DNA of 39,615 nucleotides from a virus: positions 1 through 39,615 of IMG/VR virus record IMGVR_UViG_3300045988_104347; one strand, 5' to 3'. The position numbers were made by a program, and so were the translations under genes. The notes beneath the pieces were generated by a model. The model did not search any database. It was not told the origin of the DNA and saw only the letters and a program-made list of their open reading frames with translations. Shown here in pieces: positions 333-39,615 of this stretch (its first letter is position 1; the number at the start of each line of letters is the position of its first letter).

Positions 333-354
<22 letters not shown>

Positions 355-1772
355 ATAGTTCCCACGACCGAAGTTAATGTACTTTGTATGTTAATTTCGG
401 TCGTGTTTTTTATATCTATACGAGAAATGAGCAGGCGTATAGCTTTATCGTCTGGGCTGTCATGCAGAGCCTTGAGCCAAAGAGAAATCTGATCCGTAGT
501 GTAGTCCTTTGGCATTTCCGTCTTCTTCAATGCCTCTATCTCAGAACGGAGTTGGTTCATCTTCGCACCGATATCCTCGATAACATCAGCTGGGAGGACA
601 CCACTTGACATGTTGGTCATCAAGGTGTCATACTGCTTCTGCTTCTCCGATATCTTAGATGCAACTATCTTTTTGAAATCAGCAGCTCTCTCAGGCTCTC
701 CGCACTTGTACTTTCGCATAGCCTTAGCAATGGCCTTTTGATTTTCTTCACTGAGCAGGGTGCGAAGATATGTCTTAGCGGCGTCATCAACGATATCCAT
801 AGATATCATAGGTGCACCGCACTTCTTTGAACAACGATAGTAGTGATATACGTGTCCTTTCTTCGTTGATATGTGTGCGTGCATTTTCGCACCGCATGAG
901 CAGTAGACTAACCCACTGCATAGATATGATGTCTTTGGTCCACTCTGTTTTCTGCTATCCATAATCTTCTGCACCTCGTCAAATGTTGCCTTGTCGATTA
1001 TCATCGGCAAGGCATTTTCTATTCTTATAGCATTAGGCTTAGACCTGCGCTTGGATCTATCCTTTTCCTCGTCAACACAGTATATATATGTTCCTGTGTA
1101 TTTCTCGTTTCGTAGTATCTCATATACTGCAGAATACTTCAAGGGCTTTCCACGCTTGCCCACAATGCCCACTGCCGTCATTTCTGCGATAATGTCCTTA
1201 GTTCCCTCGTGATTTTTCACCGCCGCAAAGATCTTGCGGACATATTCCGCCTCATAGGGGTTTATGATGTACTTCTGATCTACGATATCATATCCGAACG
1301 GCGGATAGCCGCCATTGTGAAGACCTTTCAGGGCTATTTCACGTTCTCCCTTTTTCGTTTCATTTGCAAGGTTATCTATATAGTATTCTGACATTGACCA
1401 CATCAGTGCACGCATTATCTTGCTTTCAGGTCCAAGTCCGAAGTCCTGACCTACCGCTATCAGTGTAATGCCCATTTTCTGCAGGCGAGCGTCAAGATTA
1501 ACGTGTTCGCCCAGTGATCTAGCCACACGATCGTATTTGTGAATAAGAATAGTATCGAAAGTACCCTTATTGCAGTCTCTCAACATTTTTTGATACTGCG
1601 CACGGCTTGCCGTCATTGACCCCTTACCACTGATAGCCTCGTCCGCATATACTGCTACGATATTATATCCCTTAGTGGCGGCATACTGTCTGCACGCCCT
1701 GAGCTGGGCTTCAATGCTATCCTCAGACTGCTTGTCCGACGAGTATCTTGCATATATAACTGCATTGCTCAT
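333..1772 (-). CDS. Large serine recombinase (phage integrase), 479 aa
   Basis: N-terminal resolvase-type catalytic domain (AVIYARYSSDKQ, YDRVARS). Central recombinase domain. Cys-rich zinc ribbon (CSGLVYCSCGAKMH...YYRCSKKCGAP). C-terminal coiled coil. RBS GGGAG upstream of ATG 1772. The ORF 3' end crosses attL and stops inside the tRNA. Confidence 0.92.
363..411 (+). terminator. Phage-supplied hairpin plus T-run downstream of the rebuilt tRNA 3' end
   Basis: CACGACCGAA (363-372) pairs with TTCGGTCGTG (396-405), followed by TTTTTT (406-411). The loop is long (23 nt), so terminator efficiency is uncertain. It lies inside the 3' tail of the integrase ORF on the other strand. Confidence 0.5.
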
Positions 1773-8338: not shown

Positions 8339-10045
8339 ATGTGGAAAACTGATGAGCACAAGCAAGAGCTGGATATATTCCCCGTATATACAGACCGCCT
8401 CACGCCCGACCAGCGTGCTGACATTGAGAGTTTCCCACAGCTCAATGCCAATGATTGTAAGAAAATTAATGGCTGTTTCACGCCTTACATATTTTACAAA
8501 CGCACAAGTGCAGGAAGATACACTTGTTTCTGCACAAACTGCAACAAAGAATACAAAGTCAATCTGAACGATGTTGATGACATCTATCATGTGCAGGACG
8601 AAGTCAGACACGGATACAGAGGTGTATGTCCGTACTGCAAGGTCAATGCTGAGTATAAGTCTGCTGGATACAAGCAAGTGGGGCTTGCCGAGGCCATAGA
8701 CCTTTGTGTGTATAAAGTTGTCGATGATTTGGTCTACATATTTGCAGCAGTAGTCGAGAAGAATTATAACCTTTATTCTACAGATGACTACGATAGAGAG
8801 CCGAACATTGTTGTTGACATCAAGAAGATGTACGTTTTACGAAAAGGACGAGCAGAGGTGTACGATGTCGGCTATGCGTACACACGACACGGCTTTACAG
8901 CATTTTTCCGCCCAATAAAGAAAAAAATTTGCGGAGCCTTTAACGACGGCTTTGCAAGTCGTCCAAAAAGATATCTTTACAAAGAGACACTTCGTAACAC
9001 GTTTTTAAAGTATTCAGGGATAGATTTTGTGAAAAATGGCTACATCACCCAGTTCGATCAGGAACGCTACTACACAGCGTATGCTATGTATCCCATACTT
9101 GAAATGGCCACAAAGATGGACTGTGCAATGTTCGTTCAGGACCTTTTGTGGAGAAATAAAAAAAACTATAAGATTCTTGACTGGTCGGCAAAGTCGCCGA
9201 AAAAGTTCTTCAAGCACCTAACGCAAAATGAGGTCAAAACCATTCTTGAAGATCACACGCCGGCAGAAGTTATTGAGGTGTATCAGGACTTCAAGCGCAA
9301 AGGCAAGAAGAAAGACCTTTTCTACTGCCGAATGTATAGCTATATCATTGATTACTGTACCAGCATTGAAAAGGCAGGCGTTGATCCAGAGCAGGCATTA
9401 GAGTACCTGAGAAAAGTCATGAAGCACTCTCCTGAAGAAGAGCGTTGTGAGGACGATCACTCAGAGATAAGGCGCCTTGTCAATCTGTATGATGATTATG
9501 CTAACATAGGGCTGAAAATCGGATATGATTTTTCATTAGAAAACATAGCATTTCCAAGAGATTTAAACGAAGCACATGATAACGCAGTTGAGAACTTCAA
9601 CTTCATGGAAGAAGAACGCAAGAGAAAAGAAGCCGCCGAGCGTGAGGAAGCCTATAAGCCCAGATACAAGAAGCTTTGCAAAAAATATAAGGGCTATAGC
9701 TATCCAGGCATTCAACTGGTCGTGCCAAAGAATGCCGAAAGCATCATCAAAGAGGGAAAGGAATTGCAAATATGCGTCGGCGGCTATGCTTCAAGGCATT
9801 GCAACGGTGCCACGACAATTCTATTCATCAGAAAGCCGTTTGACCTTGATAAGTCATGGTTTACGATTGAAATAGACAATGCTGACCATATCGTGCAATG
9901 CCACGGATTTAAGAATGAACAAGCCAAAGACCCCTTAACGGGCAAGAAGCTTGAAAAGCCTGAAATAATCAAGGCGTTTGAAGTCAACTTCCAAGAGTGG
10001 CTGAATAGTCAGAAGAAGCAGAATAAGAGGAGAAAAGCAAGCTAG
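8339..10045 (+). CDS. PcfJ-like protein, 568 aa
   Basis: The C-terminal EGKELQICVGGYASRHCNGATTILFIRK matches the PcfJ-domain signature (EG..L.HCVG.Y...G...I.FIR). Zinc-ribbon-like CxxC pairs near the N-terminus. Confidence 0.6.
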   Translation: MWKTDEHKQELDIFPVYTDRLTPDQRADIESFPQLNANDCKKINGCFTPYIFYKRTSAGRYTCFCTNCNKEYKVNLNDVDDIYHVQDEVRHGYRGVCPYCKVNAEYKSAGYKQVGLAEAIDLCVYKVVDDLVYIFAAVVEKNYNLYSTDDYDREPNIVVDIKKMYVLRKGRAEVYDVGYAYTRHGFTAFFRPIKKKICGAFNDGFASRPKRYLYKETLRNTFLKYSGIDFVKNGYITQFDQERYYTAYAMYPILEMATKMDCAMFVQDLLWRNKKNYKILDWSAKSPKKFFKHLTQNEVKTILEDHTPAEVIEVYQDFKRKGKKKDLFYCRMYSYIIDYCTSIEKAGVDPEQALEYLRKVMKHSPEEERCEDDHSEIRRLVNLYDDYANIGLKIGYDFSLENIAFPRDLNEAHDNAVENFNFMEEERKRKEAAEREEAYKPRYKKLCKKYKGYSYPGIQLVVPKNAESIIKEGKELQICVGGYASRHCNGATTILFIRKPFDLDKSWFTIEIDNADHIVQCHGFKNEQAKDPLTGKKLEKPEIIKAFEVNFQEWLNSQKKQNKRRKAS

Positions 10046-10056
10046 GAGGAATTACA

Positions 10057-10569
10057 ATGAATGAGATCAAACTAAGACCTGGTGAGGAGTTCGTATATAA
10101 TGGTATACGTTTTATATGCCTCGATATTATCGACGGCAATTATTTAGCAATAGCGGCTGAGTGTTGGTGTGAAAAGCGTTTTAACGAGGAGTTCAAGGAC
10201 GGCTGCAACAACTGGGAGAAATCCACTCTCCGCCGCTTTCTTAACGAAAATGTGCTAGAGGGACATTTTAACACGGAGCATCTTATAAAGCAAACGTCTG
10301 ACCTTGTCGCCGATAACGGTGATAAAGCTTACGGAACGTGTGAAGATTATATAACGCTGCTCACTTGCGACCAGTACCGCAAGTATAGAGATTATGTGCC
10401 GCTCTTTGAAGGCTGTATGTGGACGCTTACTCCGTGGAGGTGCGACACCGGCTACGCTTACAACGTGCATATCGTCATCCCGGGGGCTATCGACCACGGC
10501 AATGCACACAGCAGTTTCGGGCTTGCCCCGGTTTGTTTATTTAACTCTGATAATCTCACATTGCACTGA
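10057..10569 (+). CDS. DUF6273-like protein, 170 aa
   Basis: The motifs NNWEKSTLRRFLN, YITLLTCDQY, WTLTPW and FGLAPVCLF resemble the DUF6273 pattern. Confidence 0.45.
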   Translation: MNEIKLRPGEEFVYNGIRFICLDIIDGNYLAIAAECWCEKRFNEEFKDGCNNWEKSTLRRFLNENVLEGHFNTEHLIKQTSDLVADNGDKAYGTCEDYITLLTCDQYRKYRDYVPLFEGCMWTLTPWRCDTGYAYNVHIVIPGAIDHGNAHSSFGLAPVCLFNSDNLTLH

Positions 10570-10620
10570 CAGGTGCAGCTTATACCCGCTGAATAACTAA
10601 CCAAAATAGGAGGAAACGCA

Positions 10621-11616
10621 ATGGAAAACACAGAAATTACAGTATCTATGAAAACGGCTATGGCAGAACATCAGCACATATGCGAGTGCTACCGAACAGC
10701 TGCTACGGCTATCGTTGACATGGGCAGATCTCTCAAGAATATCAGAGACTATAAGCTCTACATAGCACTGGGGTATGAGTCTTTTAGGGATTATCTTGAA
10801 AGCAATGGTGACTACACGTTCAAAGAACGTCAGGCGTATACCTATATCAAACTCTATGAGGACAATAGCACCAAGTTCCTTGAAGAACACGCAAGTATAG
10901 GCGTGACAAAGCTGGAGCTTCTCTCCAAGCTTCCGGAGTACGAACGTGAAGAATTCGCTGACACACATGACCTTGGCGGAATGACAGTTGAAGAAGTCAA
11001 GAAGCTTATCAAAGAAAAGCAGGCATTAGGCGAACAACTGACATTCCTTGAGGAGGAGAAGAAGGAGCAGACAGAAAGCGCCGAATCTCTCAGAGCTGAG
11101 CTTGAAGAACTGAGAGAAAAGCTTAAGCAGGCCGAGGACAAGCCTATCGAGGTAGTTAAGAGAGACCTCGACGAAGAAGAGATTGACAAGATAAGGCTGT
11201 CTATCCGTCAGGAACTTCATGCCGAACATATGAAAGAGCTGAATTCGCTGAAGAAGTCAAGCCGTGAAGCCGTGAATGCGGCAGAAGCTGAAAAAAATAA
11301 TGCCCTTAAGAAAGCACAGACAGAGCGTGACGATGCAGTTAAGGAAGCCGTCGCTAAGTATGAAATCGCCCTCAGTAAAGCTAAGGCTGAGGCAGAAGAA
11401 GCGGACCATGCCAAGGCAGAGTTGGAAAAGAAATTGAAGTCAGGCAATGCAGACGAAGCAAGGGTTGCGCTGAAGATCATCTTTGAAAACGTTCAGAAAG
11501 GGCTTACGGAATTCATTGAAAAAATCAATGATATTGAAGACCCACAAACCAAGGAAAAGTTCATTACTGTCACAAGCAAGTGGCTCAGACAGGCGGCTGA
11601 TGACCTTGAGGGGTGA
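10621..11616 (+). CDS. DUF3102-like N-terminal domain plus long coiled coil, 331 aa
   Basis: N-terminal IVDMGRSLKNIRDYKLYIALGYESFRDYLE, then about 180 aa of E/K/A-rich heptad-like sequence. Confidence 0.45.
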   Translation: MENTEITVSMKTAMAEHQHICECYRTAATAIVDMGRSLKNIRDYKLYIALGYESFRDYLESNGDYTFKERQAYTYIKLYEDNSTKFLEEHASIGVTKLELLSKLPEYEREEFADTHDLGGMTVEEVKKLIKEKQALGEQLTFLEEEKKEQTESAESLRAELEELREKLKQAEDKPIEVVKRDLDEEEIDKIRLSIRQELHAEHMKELNSLKKSSREAVNAAEAEKNNALKKAQTERDDAVKEAVAKYEIALSKAKAEAEEADHAKAELEKKLKSGNADEARVALKIIFENVQKGLTEFIEKINDIEDPQTKEKFITVTSKWLRQAADDLEG

Positions 11617-11638
11617 GCTGAATGACCAGAGAATTGAA

Positions 11639-12355
11639 ATGAAGAAGAACACCACCTATGAGGAAAGAAAAGCTAATGGAATATGCCCATATTGCGGGCG
11701 AGAAAAAGCTGTTCCTGGATATATTATGTGCGAGAAATGTAGAGAACAGAACAAGGAAAGATGTAAGAAACGCTATGAACGAGCGAAAGATAAAGGGCTA
11801 TGCACACGTTGTTACAAGAAGCCATCAATTGAGGGTCAAACAATGTGCAGAGAATGTCTTGCGAAAATGCTAGCGAAAGACAAAGAAAAGCGATATGGCG
11901 GAGTATGCGATATGGATTGTTTCAATTGCAAATATGATGACTGCATTAATGACAATGTGCCAGAATGCTATGCTGATTTGCCCTTTGAGGAAAAGGAAAA
12001 GATCCGAAAACGCAATCGAGCCCGATATCACGAACTTAAAGAGAGGGGAATTTGTGTAAAATGCGGAAAGCTGCCAGCAAAAGAAGGAATCACTCTTTGT
12101 GAAAGTTGCGCACACAAGAGAAGTAAGAGGGAGAAAAGGAAAAGGGCAGAAAATCAGCAGATCAGCAAGCGGGATTTATGGCGTGAACAAAGAAAATGTT
12201 ATTTCTGCGGAGGAGAATGTGTGCAAGGCCAGAAGGTGTGCACGAAACACTATGAAATGCTCAAAGCTATGGCAATGCATATGTGTGAAAGCGAAAGGAG
12301 CAAGATCGCAAGAGAACGGCTGAAAAAAGTATACTTTGCGGGAAGGCAACAATAG
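11639..12355 (+). CDS. Repeated zinc-ribbon protein with basic linkers, 238 aa
   Basis: Four CxxC...CxxC units (CPYCG..CEKC, CTRCY..CREC, CVKCG..CESC, CYFCG..C) separated by K/R-rich helices. ATG 11639 is in frame within ORF 11483-12355. Confidence 0.6.
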   Translation: MKKNTTYEERKANGICPYCGREKAVPGYIMCEKCREQNKERCKKRYERAKDKGLCTRCYKKPSIEGQTMCRECLAKMLAKDKEKRYGGVCDMDCFNCKYDDCINDNVPECYADLPFEEKEKIRKRNRARYHELKERGICVKCGKLPAKEGITLCESCAHKRSKREKRKRAENQQISKRDLWREQRKCYFCGGECVQGQKVCTKHYEMLKAMAMHMCESERSKIARERLKKVYFAGRQQ

Positions 12356-33080: not shown

Positions 33081-33761
33081 ATGACATATGATGAATTTAT
33101 CAAGAAGCACAATGGTGTAGCGATTAACTATGACGGCGCAGCAGGCAAACAGTGTGTAGACCTTGCAACGGCATATTTCAACGAGGTCTTCGGATCAGGT
33201 ATCAAGAATTTCTGGTATGACGCACACCATTTTTGGGATTTATTCGATAAGAACACTTGGCTGAAAGCAAATTTCACAAAGGTAAAGAACACGCCAAGTT
33301 TCGTGCCGAAAAAGGGTGATGTAGCGATATGGTCAGGCACGTTGAATGGCGGCTGGGGTCACATAGCAATCTGCACGGGTGAGGGCAACACGAGTTATTT
33401 TTATTCGTATGACCAGAACTGGAGCGGAAAAGCCTGCACTAAGGTCAAGCATACTTATGACCACATTGCAGGCTTCCTGAGACCAAAGAAACAGAGCAAG
33501 ATAAGTGCGAAAGTGCTTGACAAGACAGGCTACAAGCAGGGCAACAAAACAAGCGGTGTGCTTGCCCTCAAGGAGCTGTTGCTTCTTGCAAAGGCGGTCA
33601 AGCTTCACAGCGTAGGTATGGATAAGAACGGTACATACGGAAAAGGTACTGCAAAGGCAGTTAATACTCTGCTGAAAAAGTGGGGATATTACGAAAACGG
33701 CATTGCAGGCGTGAACTTCATCAAACGGCTTGGCGATGAGATTACAAAGAAGATAAAGTAG
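33081..33761 (+). CDS. Endolysin: N-terminal CHAP domain plus C-terminal peptidoglycan-binding-like domain
   Basis: CHAP Cys/His (GKQCVDLA ... WGHIAICTG). C-terminal GVLALKELL...GTYGKGTAKAVNTLL resembles PG_binding_1. Confidence 0.85.
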   Translation: MTYDEFIKKHNGVAINYDGAAGKQCVDLATAYFNEVFGSGIKNFWYDAHHFWDLFDKNTWLKANFTKVKNTPSFVPKKGDVAIWSGTLNGGWGHIAICTGEGNTSYFYSYDQNWSGKACTKVKHTYDHIAGFLRPKKQSKISAKVLDKTGYKQGNKTSGVLALKELLLLAKAVKLHSVGMDKNGTYGKGTAKAVNTLLKKWGYYENGIAGVNFIKRLGDEITKKIK

Positions 33762-33770
33762 ACAGTAAGA

Positions 33771-33804
33771 CAGCCGACAGGGATTATTCCTTGTCGGCTG
33801 TTTT
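33771..33804 (+). terminator. Rho-independent terminator ending the late operon
   Basis: CAGCCGACAGGG-ATTATT-CCTTGTCGGCTG followed by TTTTAC. Confidence 0.8.
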
Positions 33805-33810
33805 ACTTTA

Positions 33811-34002
33811 TTATTCGATTTTTTTATCTTTTGCCATATCATTCTCAACGAGTTCTACAATCAAACCGGTTAAACTTTTCCCTTTGCTCTCAGCGTAAGC
33901 CTTATATCGCTCTTTGTCGCCAAGCGGCAAGTTAAGCGTAAGTTTATCACGTTTTTCTTTCATATAGCGCATTGTGCGTTCTTTTGATTTTTCATTATAC
34001 AC
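33811..34002 (-). CDS. Ribbon-helix-helix (Arc/Mnt/CopG-like) DNA-binding protein
   Basis: KLTLNLPLGDKERYKAYAESKGKSLTGLIVELVENDM is a strand-helix-helix pattern. The likely start is GTG 34002, 8 nt after GAGGGGG (ATG 33972 is the alternative). The ORF-track N-terminus overlaps the promoter. Confidence 0.65.
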   Translation of the reverse strand: MYNEKSKERTMRYMKEKRDKLTLNLPLGDKERYKAYAESKGKSLTGLIVELVENDMAKDKKIE

Positions 34003-34023
34003 AAATGTCACCCCCTCATTGTC

Positions 34024-34032
34024 ATTATAGCA
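34024..34032 (-). promoter_or_regulatory. Extended -10 promoter (TGCTATAAT) for the RHH gene
   Basis: The minus strand reads TGCTATAAT. The -35 position coincides with operator repeat 1. Confidence 0.55.
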
Positions 34033-34042
34033 CATATTCAAT

Positions 34043-34055
34043 TACACGGCTATAT
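34043..34055 (+). repeat. Operator-like 13-mer TACACGGCTATAT, copy 1
   Basis: Exact 13-mer. Overlaps the -35 position of the RHH promoter. Confidence 0.8.
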
Positions 34056-34069
34056 GCAAAATGAACAAA

Positions 34070-34082
34070 TACACGGCTATAT
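34070..34082 (+). repeat. Operator-like 13-mer TACACGGCTATAT, copy 2
   Basis: Exact 13-mer. Flanked by the inverted heptamers AACAAAT/ATTTGTT (34064-34070, 34083-34089). Confidence 0.8.
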
Positions 34083-34110
34083 ATTTGTTGATATTTTAAT
34101 ATAAAAGTCA

Positions 34111-34139
34111 TTGACATATACACGGCTATATGCTATAAT
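34111..34139 (+). promoter_or_regulatory. Consensus promoter of the right-arm accessory operon
   Basis: TTGACA (34111-34116), 17-nt spacer, TGC-TATAAT (34134-34139). Confidence 0.8.
34119..34131 (+). repeat. Operator-like 13-mer TACACGGCTATAT, copy 3
   Basis: Exact 13-mer. Lies entirely within the 17-nt spacer of the rightward consensus promoter. Confidence 0.8.
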
Positions 34140-34172
34140 AATATCAGAAAAGAACGAAAGGGGGCGGTTAAA

Positions 34173-34286
34173 TTGGACAAGAAAATAAAAAAGCTTGTTA
34201 AGCTGGTCCAACAACTTAACAAGCTAATGATCGAGATAATCGGCTTGATTGGCTACATCTTGATCATAAAAGATTTACTTAAATAA
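34173..34286 (+). CDS. Mini membrane peptide 1, 37 aa (TTG start; not in ORF track)
   Basis: LDKKIKKLVKLVQQLNKLMIEIIGLIGYILIIKDLLK. RBS AAAGGGGG 8 nt upstream. Lys-rich amphipathic N-terminus and hydrophobic C-terminus. Confidence 0.45.
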   Translation: MDKKIKKLVKLVQQLNKLMIEIIGLIGYILIIKDLLK

Positions 34287-34362
34287 GTAAATTCGGCAGA
34301 AAGGAGAGTTGACCGCTCTCCTAACTGCTTGAATTATACCACAAAAACGAAAGGGTGTCAAT

Positions 34363-34449
34363 ATGAAAAATGATATTTTCAAACTTTGTAAAGAGCTGCT
34401 CAAGCTTGGCGGATTGATACTTGCAGTAGCGTACCTGGTGTTAAGATAA
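34363..34449 (+). CDS. Mini membrane peptide 2, 28 aa (not in ORF track)
   Basis: MKNDIFKLCKELLKLGGLILAVAYLVLR. Same ACGAAAGGG leader as peptide 1 and the same architecture. Confidence 0.45.
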   Translation: MKNDIFKLCKELLKLGGLILAVAYLVLR

Positions 34450-34467
34450 TTCAAGGAGGTAAATAAC

Positions 34468-35022
34468 ATGATAGTTACAGTTGAAAACGAGAAAATCAAG
34501 GTCAACAGTCCGTACAACAAGAGCTTTGTCGCAGGGGCAAAGCAGATACAGGGTAAGTGGAACGCCCCTTGCTGGGTCTTCCCAGAGGAGAACAAGGAAG
34601 CCGTCAAGGCGTTGCTTATTGAATGCTACGGAGAGTGTGGAGAGCTTGGTGCGGTCAGCACTGTCACAGTAGATCTTGACCTCGACACTTATACAGAGGG
34701 TTACGAGGACGGAGAAATCAGAGTTGGCTCAATCGTTGTTTTGAAAAGACTCTATCGTGATAGAGAGGTTATTTTCTCCGACAATGCAATGCTTATAAGC
34801 GGTGGCTTTGCCACTTCGGGCGGCTCTGCCAAAAATCCCAGAATATCAGCTGACGAGGGTACAATCGTTCGTGTTAAGGGTGTGCCTGAAACAATTTACA
34901 GCAAGATAAAGGACCATAAGGGCGTTAAGCTTGTATCTGATATAGACGTGGAAAGCTTAAAAACAGAGCGTGAAAAGCTTCTCAAAAGAATTGCCGAAAT
35001 AGACGGCTTGCTTGCGCTATGA
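34468..35022 (+). CDS. Unknown 184-aa protein, translationally coupled to the short serine recombinase
   Basis: RBS AAGGAGG. The N-terminal SPYNKSFVAGAKQIQGKWNAPCWVFP weakly resembles the DUF5710-type motif. C-terminal coiled segment ESLKTEREKLLKRIAEIDGLL. Its stop overlaps the next ATG (ATGA). Confidence 0.7.
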   Translation: MIVTVENEKIKVNSPYNKSFVAGAKQIQGKWNAPCWVFPEENKEAVKALLIECYGECGELGAVSTVTVDLDLDTYTEGYEDGEIRVGSIVVLKRLYRDREVIFSDNAMLISGGFATSGGSAKNPRISADEGTIVRVKGVPETIYSKIKDHKGVKLVSDIDVESLKTEREKLLKRIAEIDGLLAL

Positions 35023-35825
35023 AAGCGGCGGTCTATATAAGGGTGTCAACGCTGGACCAAGCACGAGAGGGGTACTCCCTCTCTGCCCAGCGAAAGACAC
35101 TAACAGAATGGTGCGCCACAAGAGGTTATGAGGTATACAATGTATATGCCGACGAGGGTATAAGTGCAAAAGATATTACACACCGCCCAGCGTGTCAAGC
35201 CATGCTTGAAGCGGCGTATAACAGTGAATTTGATATCATACTGATATGGGCGTTAAGCCGTTTCACAAGGTCCGTTGCAGATCTTTACGATACATGGGAT
35301 AAACTACAAAAACATAACGTCGGCGTTGTAAGTTGCACAGAGGGTTTCGACACATCTACACCGACAGGGCGTGCTATGATGGGCGTACTTGGTGTTTTCG
35401 CCCAAATGGAGAGAGAATTGACGGCTGAAAGAGTTTCGTTTGCTTTAGCTGAAAGAGCTTCACAGGGGAAGCGGACTTGCTCTGACGTTTTAGGCTATAA
35501 CCTAGACGGAAAGGATAGTCTTACTATCAATGAAACAGAGGCAGAAGTTGTTCGGTTAATTTTCAAAAAATTCATTGAGTATCAGTCCTATCTACCTGTA
35601 GCTGAGATAGTCAACGCAATGGGGCATCATGGGCGACGAGGAAGTTCATTTAACGCTGAGTCGATAAAGAAAATAGTAACACGCCCTGTTTACATCGGCT
35701 ATTATAGCTTTAAGGGGCATTTATATCAGGGCGACTATGAGCCGTTGATATCGGAAAAAGATTGGAGACACGCACAACGTATCGTACAGAAGATACGTTG
35801 CGGTCGGAGAAAGTATATCAGATAG
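35019..35825 (+). CDS. Serine recombinase, 268 aa: catalytic plus recombinase domains only (no zinc ribbon or coiled coil)
   Basis: AAVYIRVSTLDQ (nucleophile Ser), LSRFTRS, FAQMERELTAERV, then a recombinase-domain-like GYNLDG...EAEVVRLIF...IVTRPVYIGYY. Ends at RCGRRKYIR, directly before a strong terminator. Confidence 0.85.
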   Translation: MKAAVYIRVSTLDQAREGYSLSAQRKTLTEWCATRGYEVYNVYADEGISAKDITHRPACQAMLEAAYNSEFDIILIWALSRFTRSVADLYDTWDKLQKHNVGVVSCTEGFDTSTPTGRAMMGVLGVFAQMERELTAERVSFALAERASQGKRTCSDVLGYNLDGKDSLTINETEAEVVRLIFKKFIEYQSYLPVAEIVNAMGHHGRRGSSFNAESIKKIVTRPVYIGYYSFKGHLYQGDYEPLISEKDWRHAQRIVQKIRCGRRKYIR

Positions 35826-35830
35826 TATTT

Positions 35831-35869
35831 CAGACGTCTCGGAGTGATCTGAGACGTCTGATTTTTTTT
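35831..35869 (+). terminator. Rho-independent terminator of the right-arm operon
   Basis: CAGACGTCTC-(10-nt loop)-GAGACGTCTG followed by A-TTTTTTTT. Confidence 0.85.
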
Positions 35870-35927
35870 CTATCGTTGAAAAAAGTATAAAAATTTGAAA
35901 AGTATCGTGGGAAAAATATGTTGCGGT

Positions 35928-35939
35928 CTCCCGCAACCA
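35928..35939. repeat. attR common core CTCCCGCAACCA
   Basis: Identical to 343-354. The left flank (35906-35925) is the symmetric partner of 347-366. Confidence 0.85.
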
Positions 35940-35969
35940 TATTGGTGATACCAAATGGATACTCACCTT

Positions 35970-35996
35970 AAAAAGCCCGTGTTTACGGGCTTTTTT
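35970..35996. terminator. Bidirectional-looking terminator, probably the displaced native tRNA-fMet terminator
   Basis: AAAAA-GCCCGT-GTTT-ACGGGC-TTTTTT, 30 nt downstream of the attR core. Confidence 0.75.
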
Positions 35997-36369
35997 GATA
36001 TTTAGAAAACAAAAAATTTTAATGTAAAACCGTGGATGCTTTTCACCAGTTTTCACGAAAAAAAGGGAGTCGAACCCTACACAACAAAAAATATCGAACA
36101 TAACGGCAGACTTTGAGTATATTTTGCTCTAAGCCTGCCGATTTTTTATGAAAAAACATTCACAAAGTTTAGAAGGCTGTTTTGTCAAATATCACGAAAT
36201 GTGATAAACGACAAAGCGGTCTTTTTTTATTTCAAAGGAGGCTTGATAACAAATATACTATAAAAAGGGAATCTAAAACGACTGGAGGTGATCAAGTAAA
36301 AAATAAACAGCAGTCAGACCGATGATATGACCAAAGACCCGATATGGGAATGACGATGTGAGGCAGAAT

Positions 36370-36645
36370 ATGATTTACAACGAAAAGAAGGTAGAAATGC
36401 TCAGGCAGAGATATCCCGAAGGAACTCGGATATGCCTTGACAGTATGGATAACGATCCCCGTCCGATTCCACCAGGTACTAAAGGCATAGTTCAATTTGT
36501 GGACGATGCAGTAACTCTGCATTGTAAATTTGACAACGGAAGAACGCTTGGGGTTATCCCCGATGTGGATAAGTTCCATAAAATCGCTCAGGAACAGGCT
36601 CTGAATGATACGCAAAGGCAGAATCCGCCGTCTGATGCCTGTTGA
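36370..36645 (+). CDS. DUF4314-like protein with an aberrant C-terminal tail
   Basis: EKKVEMLRQRYPEGTRICLDSMDNDPRPIPPGTKGIVQFVDDAVTLHCKFDNGRTLGVIP matches the DUF4314 pattern. The last ~15 codons overlap the methylase remnant in another frame. Confidence 0.6.
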   Translation: MIYNEKKVEMLRQRYPEGTRICLDSMDNDPRPIPPGTKGIVQFVDDAVTLHCKFDNGRTLGVIPDVDKFHKIAQEQALNDTQRQNPPSDAC

Positions 36646-36826
36646 GTGCTGGCGGCTTCAAGGTTTTACAACCGAACAGTTTGAAAAAGTCGCAACTGCA
36701 GGAATGTCCGACGCACAGATCTACAAGCAGGCAGGAAATTCAATTACGGTAAATGTGGTTGAAGCTATTGCAAGAAATTTACTGAAATTTGACGAGGAGG
36801 AAAACGCAAATGGAACAGGTAATTAA
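36605..36826 (+). pseudogene. 3' remnant of a C5 cytosine DNA methyltransferase (motifs IX-X only)
   Basis: RRLMPVECWRLQGF and YKQAGNSITVNV are the C-terminal Dcm-type motifs. About 300 N-terminal residues (motifs I-VIII) are absent upstream. Confidence 0.75.
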
Positions 36827-39523: not shown

Positions 39524-39615
39524 ATGTTTAAAATTAAATCAAAGATTTTAAAGAAACTTAGCGCAGGGTTCATGGCAGGACTCTGCGCTTTTTCTATGCT
39601 CGGTTCATCTGTGAG
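39524..39615 (+). CDS. 5' end of a secreted/membrane protein gene (partial)
   Basis: RBS AAAGGAGA. MFKIKSKILKKLSAGFMAGLCAFSMLGSSV is signal-peptide-like. Runs off the window. Confidence 0.5.
   Translation, partial: MFKIKSKILKKLSAGFMAGLCAFSMLGSSV

Follow-up and report, generated by a model that had tools for sequence, protein, structure and literature searches.

A short serine recombinase without a zinc ribbon, carried in a probable accessory cassette of a temperate phage

Why should a phage that already has a large serine integrase carry, close to its attachment site, a second serine recombinase that ends before the zinc ribbon? This question is raised by the IMG/VR record IMGVR_UViG_3300045988_104347, analyzed here over its whole 39,615 nt (the window; L-numbers denote contigs compared with it), in which a protein of 268 amino acids (aa), composed of a catalytic domain and a recombinase domain (RD) only, is encoded between the lysis genes and the right end of a prophage. 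The reading we favor, at a probability of roughly 0.55, is that the short recombinase belongs to an autonomous accessory cassette in a cargo hotspot of the prophage and that it serves this cassette, or the element carrying it, and takes no part in integrating or excising the phage. The genes and sites on which the argument turns are listed below.

35019 to 35825, plus strand: 268-aa serine recombinase, catalytic domain and RD only (Pfam, family survey, selection, AlphaFold, structure match)
34468 to 35022, plus strand: 184-aa protein in a variable cargo slot (phrog_18108; AlphaFold; selection)
35830 to 35869, plus strand: intrinsic terminator, right boundary of the module (hairpin 35830 to 35861; breaks in homology)
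333 to 1772, minus strand: 479-aa large serine integrase of the prophage, whose open reading frame (ORF) spans the att core (three Pfam domains; conserved in related phages)
343 to 354: attL copy of the core, equal to the 3' end of a tRNA-Met gene (278 to 354), left end of the prophage (tRNA call; join in L116)
35928 to 35939: 12-bp att core CTCCCGCAACCA in its attR copy, where the prophage ends on the right (overlap with L116; varied right flanks)

The Resolvase catalytic domain covers residues 3 to 151 of the 268-aa protein (Pfam PF00239, E = 8.7e-41) and the Recombinase domain residues 172 to 257 (PF07508, E = 1.2e-16, profile positions 1 to 100 of 102). The Pfam scan found no Zn_ribbon_recom domain (PF13408) in it, while all three domains are present in the 479-aa integrase, and in the AlphaFold model the last RD helix (residues 246 to 266) is the end of the protein; the initial annotation, made from the letters of the window alone, was therefore right that the protein stops where the zinc ribbon begins. 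The top structural matches of the model were Bxb1, SPbeta, the N-terminal domain plus RD of phiC31, and the RD of A118, which superposes on the model RD at a root mean square deviation of 1.8 to 2.0 Å. The best sequence match among solved structures was the catalytic domain of TP901-1 (E = 1e-35), and the PHROG DNA-invertase profile covers only residues 1 to 155. Identity to the 479-aa integrase is 27%, in keeping with the earlier view that the short recombinase is not a recent duplicate of it.

That the protein ends exactly at the boundary between RD and zinc ribbon could also mean that it is the decaying remnant of a large serine integrase gene. On comparison of sequences, however, the survey of the family suffices to refute this reading. 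Searched against 5.8 billion proteins, the 268-aa sequence yielded 996 relatives at a threshold of E ≤ 1e-20, hundreds of them of equal length; the best 120 of the 996 are 179 to 299 aa long, nearly all of them 252 to 299 aa, with the same two domains and 55 to 99% identity. The named carriers include Agathobaculum, Anaeromassilibacillus, and Faecalicatena, and the protein matches in architecture, length, and sequence a type annotated as "recombinase family protein" that has Resolvase and Recombinase domains only (approximately 260 to 285 aa, Clostridia). In an alignment of 28 sequences with 54 to 79% identity, R8, S10, R81, and R84 are among the invariant catalytic residues. The ratio of nonsynonymous to synonymous polymorphism (pN/pS), determined from 24 to 25 distinct alleles of near-identical phages, is 0.065 for the recombinase gene and 0.066 for the 184-aa gene; both are thus under purifying selection and are working genes. 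When three integrase C-terminal halves were compared by tblastn with positions 35600 to 36600, where degraded zinc-ribbon coding sequence would have spoken for decay, only noise was returned (best E = 0.17), and the gene has a terminator of its own, a hairpin with a 14-bp stem followed by T8, as had been noted earlier. The family survey, selection analysis, and remnant search together rule out a truncated pseudogene and bear out the earlier claim of a genuine short form as opposed to a random truncation. Family members were also found on large plasmid-like or conjugative-element-like contigs; among GenBank phages no relative exceeded 42% identity, all matches there being full-length integrases, and a literature search for a characterized enzyme with Resolvase and Recombinase domains only found none. 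Altogether, the short form is a real, widespread, and uncharacterized architectural variant of serine recombinases.

We then considered how the short recombinase relates to the integrase and the attachment site. The circular form of the phage is represented by the IMG/VR contig L116, in which window position 35939 is joined to window position 343 via the common 12-nt core, and at least five different right flanks follow directly after ...CAACCA among contigs with an identical recombinase; the prophage therefore spans approximately 343 to 35939. The phage is best explained as a temperate siphophage that has inserted itself at tRNA-Met of a Hominimerdicola aceti relative. In L116 the two recombinase genes converge on attP, an arrangement that the initial annotation had predicted for the excised genome. 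The integrase is 479 aa long in the prophage and 495 aa in the circular, attP-containing form (L116 10851 to 12338), and because its ORF crosses the att core, integration alters the C-terminal tail of the enzyme. In the prophage the protein closes with ...TIGCGSWI and its stop codon falls within tRNA-Met; in the circle it closes with ...TIGCGRPQHIFPTILFKFLYFFQR and its stop codon is 44 bp from that of the short recombinase.

The position of the short recombinase gene, convergent with the integrase gene and with 102 nt between its stop codon and the att core, together with the catalytic and RD fold that it shares with large serine integrases, is what had suggested a directionality or excision module, in which a paralogue without the coiled coil, helped by a partner, would steer or inhibit the integrase at attP or at attL and attR. 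Sibling phages speak strongly against such a role. Among 80 phages with an endolysin 96 to 98% identical to that of the window, the cassette, a segment that lies at 34.0 to 35.87 kb between the lysis genes and attP, occurs in 15; in at least 24 others, whose sequence extends far enough downstream, different genes fill its place. Two of them (L267 and L287) match the window up to 33804 and again from 35828, i.e., in the terminator, the attP arm, and the core, and between these flanks encode a 362-aa PDC-S02-like protein instead of the cassette; the same gene is found in L236, a contig that stops before the att region. The integrase, 98 to 99% identical across related phages, is encoded on the L267 contig (L219) in the absence of the cassette; the cassette-less siblings keep the same integrase and core and are found integrated. 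In L260 the slot is occupied by a GmrSD/NsnA-like gene, and in other siblings by an HTH and M78 pair followed by a tyrosine integrase, or by other genes.

Conversely, a cassette 97% identical to window positions 33772 to 35869 is found in phages at other sites: at tRNA-Pro(CGG) in L113 and L122, with two copies of the direct repeat TCGTGTCATATT in the intervening DNA (L121 is similar), and at a non-tRNA site in the prophage of an H. aceti isolate (L022), where ordinary chromosomal genes follow directly. The att regions next to near-identical recombinases are thus of three different kinds. Farther out in the family, the gene converges on a tyrosine integrase (L147, 427 aa; L317, 345 aa) or on endolysin genes (L127, L146, and L324), and some adjoin tmRNA or tRNA-Lys junctions. 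Cassette-less siblings with the same integrase and cassettes at other sites therefore mark the integrase with attP and the cassette as separate modules. Comparison of these genomes demonstrates an optional cassette, to all appearance independent of the 479-aa integrase and its attP and exchanged among phages with different integration sites.

The specificity to a cognate integrase that a directionality factor should have was not seen, given the integrase without cassette in L267/L219 and L287. An identity of 27% would also make mixed tetramers of the two enzymes unlikely, and, to our knowledge, recombination directionality factors are not recombinase paralogues. A role as directionality factor for the 479-aa integrase is thus judged very unlikely on these genomic grounds. 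Nor, as judged from the genomes, does the short recombinase seem to be the integrase of its carrier acting on the adjacent attP, with cassette-less siblings integrated at the same site. An optional, exchanged cassette with variable cargo argues instead for an autonomous accessory unit, not a directionality module.

At its right side the exchanged unit is bounded by the terminator, with homology to other phages stopping at 35865 to 35873 (L022, L113, and L121) or beginning at 35828 (L267 and L287). The left boundaries vary (33772, 34128, and 34455) and lie in shared terminators, which speaks against a mobile element with defined ends and looks like homologous module exchange. The hotspot between the endolysin terminator and attP could be delimited in several siblings (L267 6827 to 7915, L260 6844 to 8040, L240 6873 to 7766, and L272 6742 to 8425), its contents being a PDC-S02-like gene, a GmrSD/NsnA-like gene, an HTH and M78 pair, or an HTH_26 gene with one for a 324-aa protein.

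We next turned to the gene upstream of the recombinase. The 184-aa and 268-aa ORFs overlap by ATGA at 35019 to 35022, exactly as first described, and from this overlap the 184-aa protein had been taken for a dedicated partner. Nearly all members of the recombinase family have a coupled upstream ORF, at a gap of -4 to +27 nt, and these ORFs encode proteins of 66 to 250 aa from at least 14 unrelated families. By iterated searches with hidden Markov models, only five lineages proved to have a member of the 184-aa family in front of the recombinase (the window, L001, L023, L153 to L155, and L054). In L024 an AcrIC5-like gene (9764 to 9964; 36.2 bits in Pfam, where the cutoff is 27) directly precedes a short recombinase of 61% identity, and between L180 and L157 nucleotide homology is limited to the recombinase gene itself.

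The 184-aa family, for its part, can be met with apart from any short recombinase: on conjugative-plasmid-like contigs, at 84% identity, where its neighbors are AcrVA2-like, DUF4314, DUF3846, single-stranded DNA-binding protein (SSB), and relaxase genes; at the edge of a conjugative-element-like region beside dnaA; in a phage, with an AcrVA2-like neighbor; and on plasmids of Clostridium perfringens, Limosilactobacillus, Streptomyces-group bacteria, and Leptospira. The notion of a dedicated partner is therefore not supported, and from these comparisons the gene before the recombinase is, by all indications, exchangeable cargo. The 184-aa protein itself has no Pfam match, and whole-protein fold searches of the PDB and sequence searches with it gave no meaningful match. 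Its AlphaFold model (predicted local distance difference test score, 89) has a HARP-like N-terminal domain, a beta domain, and a conserved C-terminal helix, and its N-terminal 50 aa or so match HepA-related and helicase N-terminal domains in BFVD. On several plasmid-like contigs (L014 to L021, around 10001 to 12036; L331, 1825 to 6390) a member of the 184-aa family lies 0.9 to 3.3 kb upstream of, and in the same orientation as, a small serine recombinase of 187 to 204 aa, annotated in L331 simply as "recombinase family protein"; this may be coincidence or a looser link.

The remaining parts of the cassette lie upstream of the two genes.

33811 to 34041, minus strand: 76-aa ribbon-helix-helix (Arc-like) regulator, divergent from the operon (PHROG phrog_582, E = 6e-6; weak Pfam DUF6364/ParG)
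34038 to 34131: three direct repeats containing TACACGGCTATAT, probable operator (repeat families D6 and D2)
34111 to 34139, plus strand: P(+), consensus sigma-70-type promoter, TTGACA-17-TATAAT with TG (12/12 match)
34173 to 34286, plus strand: predicted leader small ORF A, 37 aa, amphipathic (same-position counterparts in L001, L022, and L315)
34192 to 34225, minus strand: terminator-like hairpin within ORF A (hairpin call)
34333 to 34361, minus strand: P(-), consensus antisense promoter, convergent with P(+) (12/12 match)
34363 to 34449, plus strand: predicted leader small ORF B, 28-aa hydrophobic peptide (same-position transmembrane-like peptides of 27 to 29 aa in L001, L022, and L315)

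The third TACACGGCTATAT repeat sits between the -35 and -10 boxes of P(+), and an HTH_26 regulator of 71 to 118 aa takes the position of the Arc-like regulator in other lineages. An equivalent of P(+) is present in divergent cassettes, and the convergent pair P(+)/P(-), 200 to 260 bp apart, was found in seven or more divergent lineages, although promoters of this quality have a background frequency of 0.1 per kb. A short antisense RNA begun at P(-) would end at the minus-strand hairpin. The conserved leader could be followed at window positions 34111 to 34461, L001 6970 to 7452, L022 8963 to 9452, and L315 9292 to 10003, in the order convergent promoters, amphipathic mini-ORF of 37 to 49 aa, hairpin, and transmembrane-like mini-ORF of 27 to 29 aa, and cassettes with an HTH_26 protein as regulator are laid out in the same way. 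To judge from its arrangement, the leader looks like a bistable or antisense switch, which would imply tight, switch-like control; it resembles convergent-promoter switches such as prgQ/prgX. An Rfam scan of 33700 to 36400 gave nothing over threshold, and the inverted repeat 34322 to 34337 with 34446 to 34461, considered as an mRNA stem masking the ribosome-binding site, found no support in the minimum-free-energy fold.

In the accessory cassette as we picture it, a divergent small repressor with its operator repeats, a strong promoter facing an antisense promoter, and two leader mini-ORFs would precede one exchangeable cargo gene, here that of the 184-aa HARP-like protein, followed by the translationally coupled recombinase and the terminator. 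The recombinase, made of catalytic domain, helix E, and RD, would bind sites of approximately 30 bp through the RD as a dimer and would act as an enzyme of the resolvase/invertase type that serves the cassette or its carrier element; its job could be to move or maintain the linked cargo or to resolve multimers of the element.

There is precedent for such an association. In the RADS system, the small serine recombinase EF_B0058 is co-transcribed with a type IV restriction enzyme, and Gin-like small recombinases are co-transcribed downstream of variable defense genes in mobile elements of Bacillota; the recombinase was dispensable for defense and was postulated to mobilize cargo (Andersen et al. 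2026, PMC13552941). In the window, too, the recombinase is the conserved 3' gene of a short operon on a mobile element, in a defense-rich context, with a varying cargo gene directly before it, and the spacing of the two genes suggests that they are co-transcribed. The cargo here differs in being uncharacterized and, in one lineage, anti-CRISPR-like rather than defensive, and the cassette in having its own repressor and a convergent-promoter leader.

Several observations weigh against our proposal. No recombination site, inverted-repeat pair, invertible segment, or rearranged variant was seen among approximately 40 near-identical contigs; with no target found, the enzymatic role is drawn from conservation and analogy. 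The ATGA coupling to the 184-aa gene has been kept in five lineages whose recombinases are 57 to 79% and whose 184-aa proteins are 29 to 64% identical, pointing to long co-inheritance despite divergence and leaving room for functional interplay of the two proteins in this sub-lineage. The RADS recombinases are Gin-like small enzymes of another subfamily than the RD-type enzyme of approximately 270 aa studied here, and their own role has only been postulated. Finally, in L001, a related phage of whose genome roughly half is at hand, no further recombinase was seen within the 8 kb next to attP.

The search for a target site bears on a second reading, in which the enzyme is a multimer resolvase or invertase of the carrier replicon with its site elsewhere in the phage or plasmid. 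Its intact catalytic residues, an RD that, by the A118 structure match, could bind DNA alone, and the occurrence of the family on plasmid-like and conjugative-element-like contigs are consistent with it; an integrated prophage, however, has no obvious need for dimer resolution, and neither an inverted-repeat pair nor an inversion was found in the near-identical contigs. Around the gene itself no candidate repeats for res-, hix-, or gix-like sites and no inversions were detected, although short degenerate sites could escape such a search. The DNA common to all carriers of near-identical cassettes (34455 to 35865) holds no convincing dyad besides the terminator. On this balance we hold the reading to be unlikely. 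Among individual candidates, the terminator palindrome (35830 to 35861) was rejected as a crossover site, the terminators of homologues sharing no half-site sequence. An invertible promoter between the inverted repeats 34322 to 34337 and 34446 to 34461 was dismissed for lack of an inverted variant among the contigs and, further, because transcription once inverted would begin inside the ribosome-binding site. A tail-fiber invertase like Gin or Cin was dropped, neither inverted repeats nor inversions having been found.

The cargo, in turn, bears on the idea that the cassette is a prophage-borne immunity or counter-immunity operon and the recombinase itself an effector acting on foreign or host DNA, in the extreme form by collapsing repeat arrays or cutting incoming genomes. 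In having a strong promoter and a repressor of its own, the cassette is similar to anti-CRISPR operons. PDC-S02-like and GmrSD/NsnA-like genes fill the slot in siblings, an AcrIC5-like gene stands directly upstream of the recombinase in L024, and AcrVA2-like, DUF4314, DUF3846, and SSB genes neighbor the 184-aa family elsewhere. Nevertheless, PADLOC gave no match for either the 184-aa or the 268-aa protein, and we know of no defense system with a serine recombinase as effector. In the published analogue the recombinase is dispensable for defense (PMC13552941). We regard an effector role as unlikely.

Another alternative arises from the L001-type phage, whose recombinase is 266 aa long and 79% identical to that of the window. 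The circular L001 and the prophages L002 to L004, integrated at tRNA-Pro(GGG), share identical sequence until 143 bp beyond the recombinase gene, where they part abruptly, the crossover (L001 8801 to 10183 versus L002 8801 to 9020) falling at the last 6 nt of tRNA-Pro(GGG), and across attP the neighbors are an endonuclease (phrog_4225), an M78 fragment, and a cI-like repressor, with no integrase within 8 kb. The short recombinase could thus be the integrase of some phages, and the copy in the window a second integration system. In large serine integrases, though, att sites are recognized and brought into synapsis with the help of the zinc ribbon and coiled coil, which these enzymes require, and about half of the L001-type genome lies outside the sequence at hand; other lineages clearly have, next to the short recombinase, either a tyrosine integrase or a junction at a tRNA or tmRNA with direct repeats in the intervening DNA, and near-identical recombinases adjoin three different att regions. 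The recombinase of the L001-type phage may be such a minimal integrase, but as an account of the family the reading seems to us improbable. The bolder and doubtful proposal that RD-only recombinases work autonomously without zinc ribbon and coiled coil, either as minimal phage integrases or as an integron-like engine that swaps defense and anti-defense cargo into the upstream slot in Clostridial phages and plasmids, deserves mention as well.

Set beside known systems, the short recombinase shares with the large serine integrases (Bxb1, SPbeta SprA, phiC31, A118, and TP901-1) the catalytic domain, the long helix E, and the RD; unlike them, it lacks the zinc ribbon and its embedded coiled coil, is approximately 200 aa shorter, keeps to no one attP, and, judged from the genomes, is dispensable when the phage that carries it integrates. 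Like the small serine recombinases (gamma-delta/Tn3 resolvase and Hin/Gin), it is a fairly small enzyme that stands alone, has one DNA-binding module following helix E, and probably acts on short sites; those enzymes, however, are approximately 180 to 210 aa long with a helix-turn-helix of some 45 aa, whereas here 268 aa include an RD of some 100 aa of the large family, and no res- or hix-like sites were detected next to the gene. Anti-CRISPR operons with Aca repressors likewise have a strong promoter, a dedicated small repressor, and variable small genes followed by a conserved gene, a likeness heightened by the AcrIC5-like gene in L024; in the cassette, by contrast, the conserved gene encodes an apparently active recombinase, not a helix-turn-helix repressor, and the repressor is divergently transcribed.

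Outside the prophage, the DNA from 35940 to the end of the window at 39615, 3' of tRNA-Met, is host-side and conjugative-element-like, not phage, with DUF4314, methylase remnant, Bro/ANT, Dam, and DUF3846 genes. The methylase remnant, a 73-aa ORF (36605 to 36826), is the C-terminal part of a C5 cytosine methylase that is full length (411 aa) in L013, and in L006 the host-side stretch goes on with a Cna_B/SpaA adhesin, DUF3852, and DUF3991-Toprim. On the left side of the same tRNA-Met, L182 (11793 to 18421) has an inovirus-like element with a Zot-like ATPase, REP_ORF2-G2P, and a 256-aa tyrosine recombinase.

For the phage in the window, these results remove as wrong the tempting idea of a short paralogue controlling integrase directionality. 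For the family, if its enzymes are active, they would add to the resolvases/invertases and the large integrases a third class of serine recombinase, intermediate in architecture, with approximately 1,000 members on gut Clostridial phages, plasmids, and conjugative-element-like DNA, apparently none of them characterized. With its 3' position in a regulated operon behind an exchangeable gene, the short recombinase may serve as a marker for new defense and anti-defense genes, a use that would follow the one made of small serine recombinases, and, at approximately 270 aa, it may offer a compact recombinase scaffold for genome engineering.

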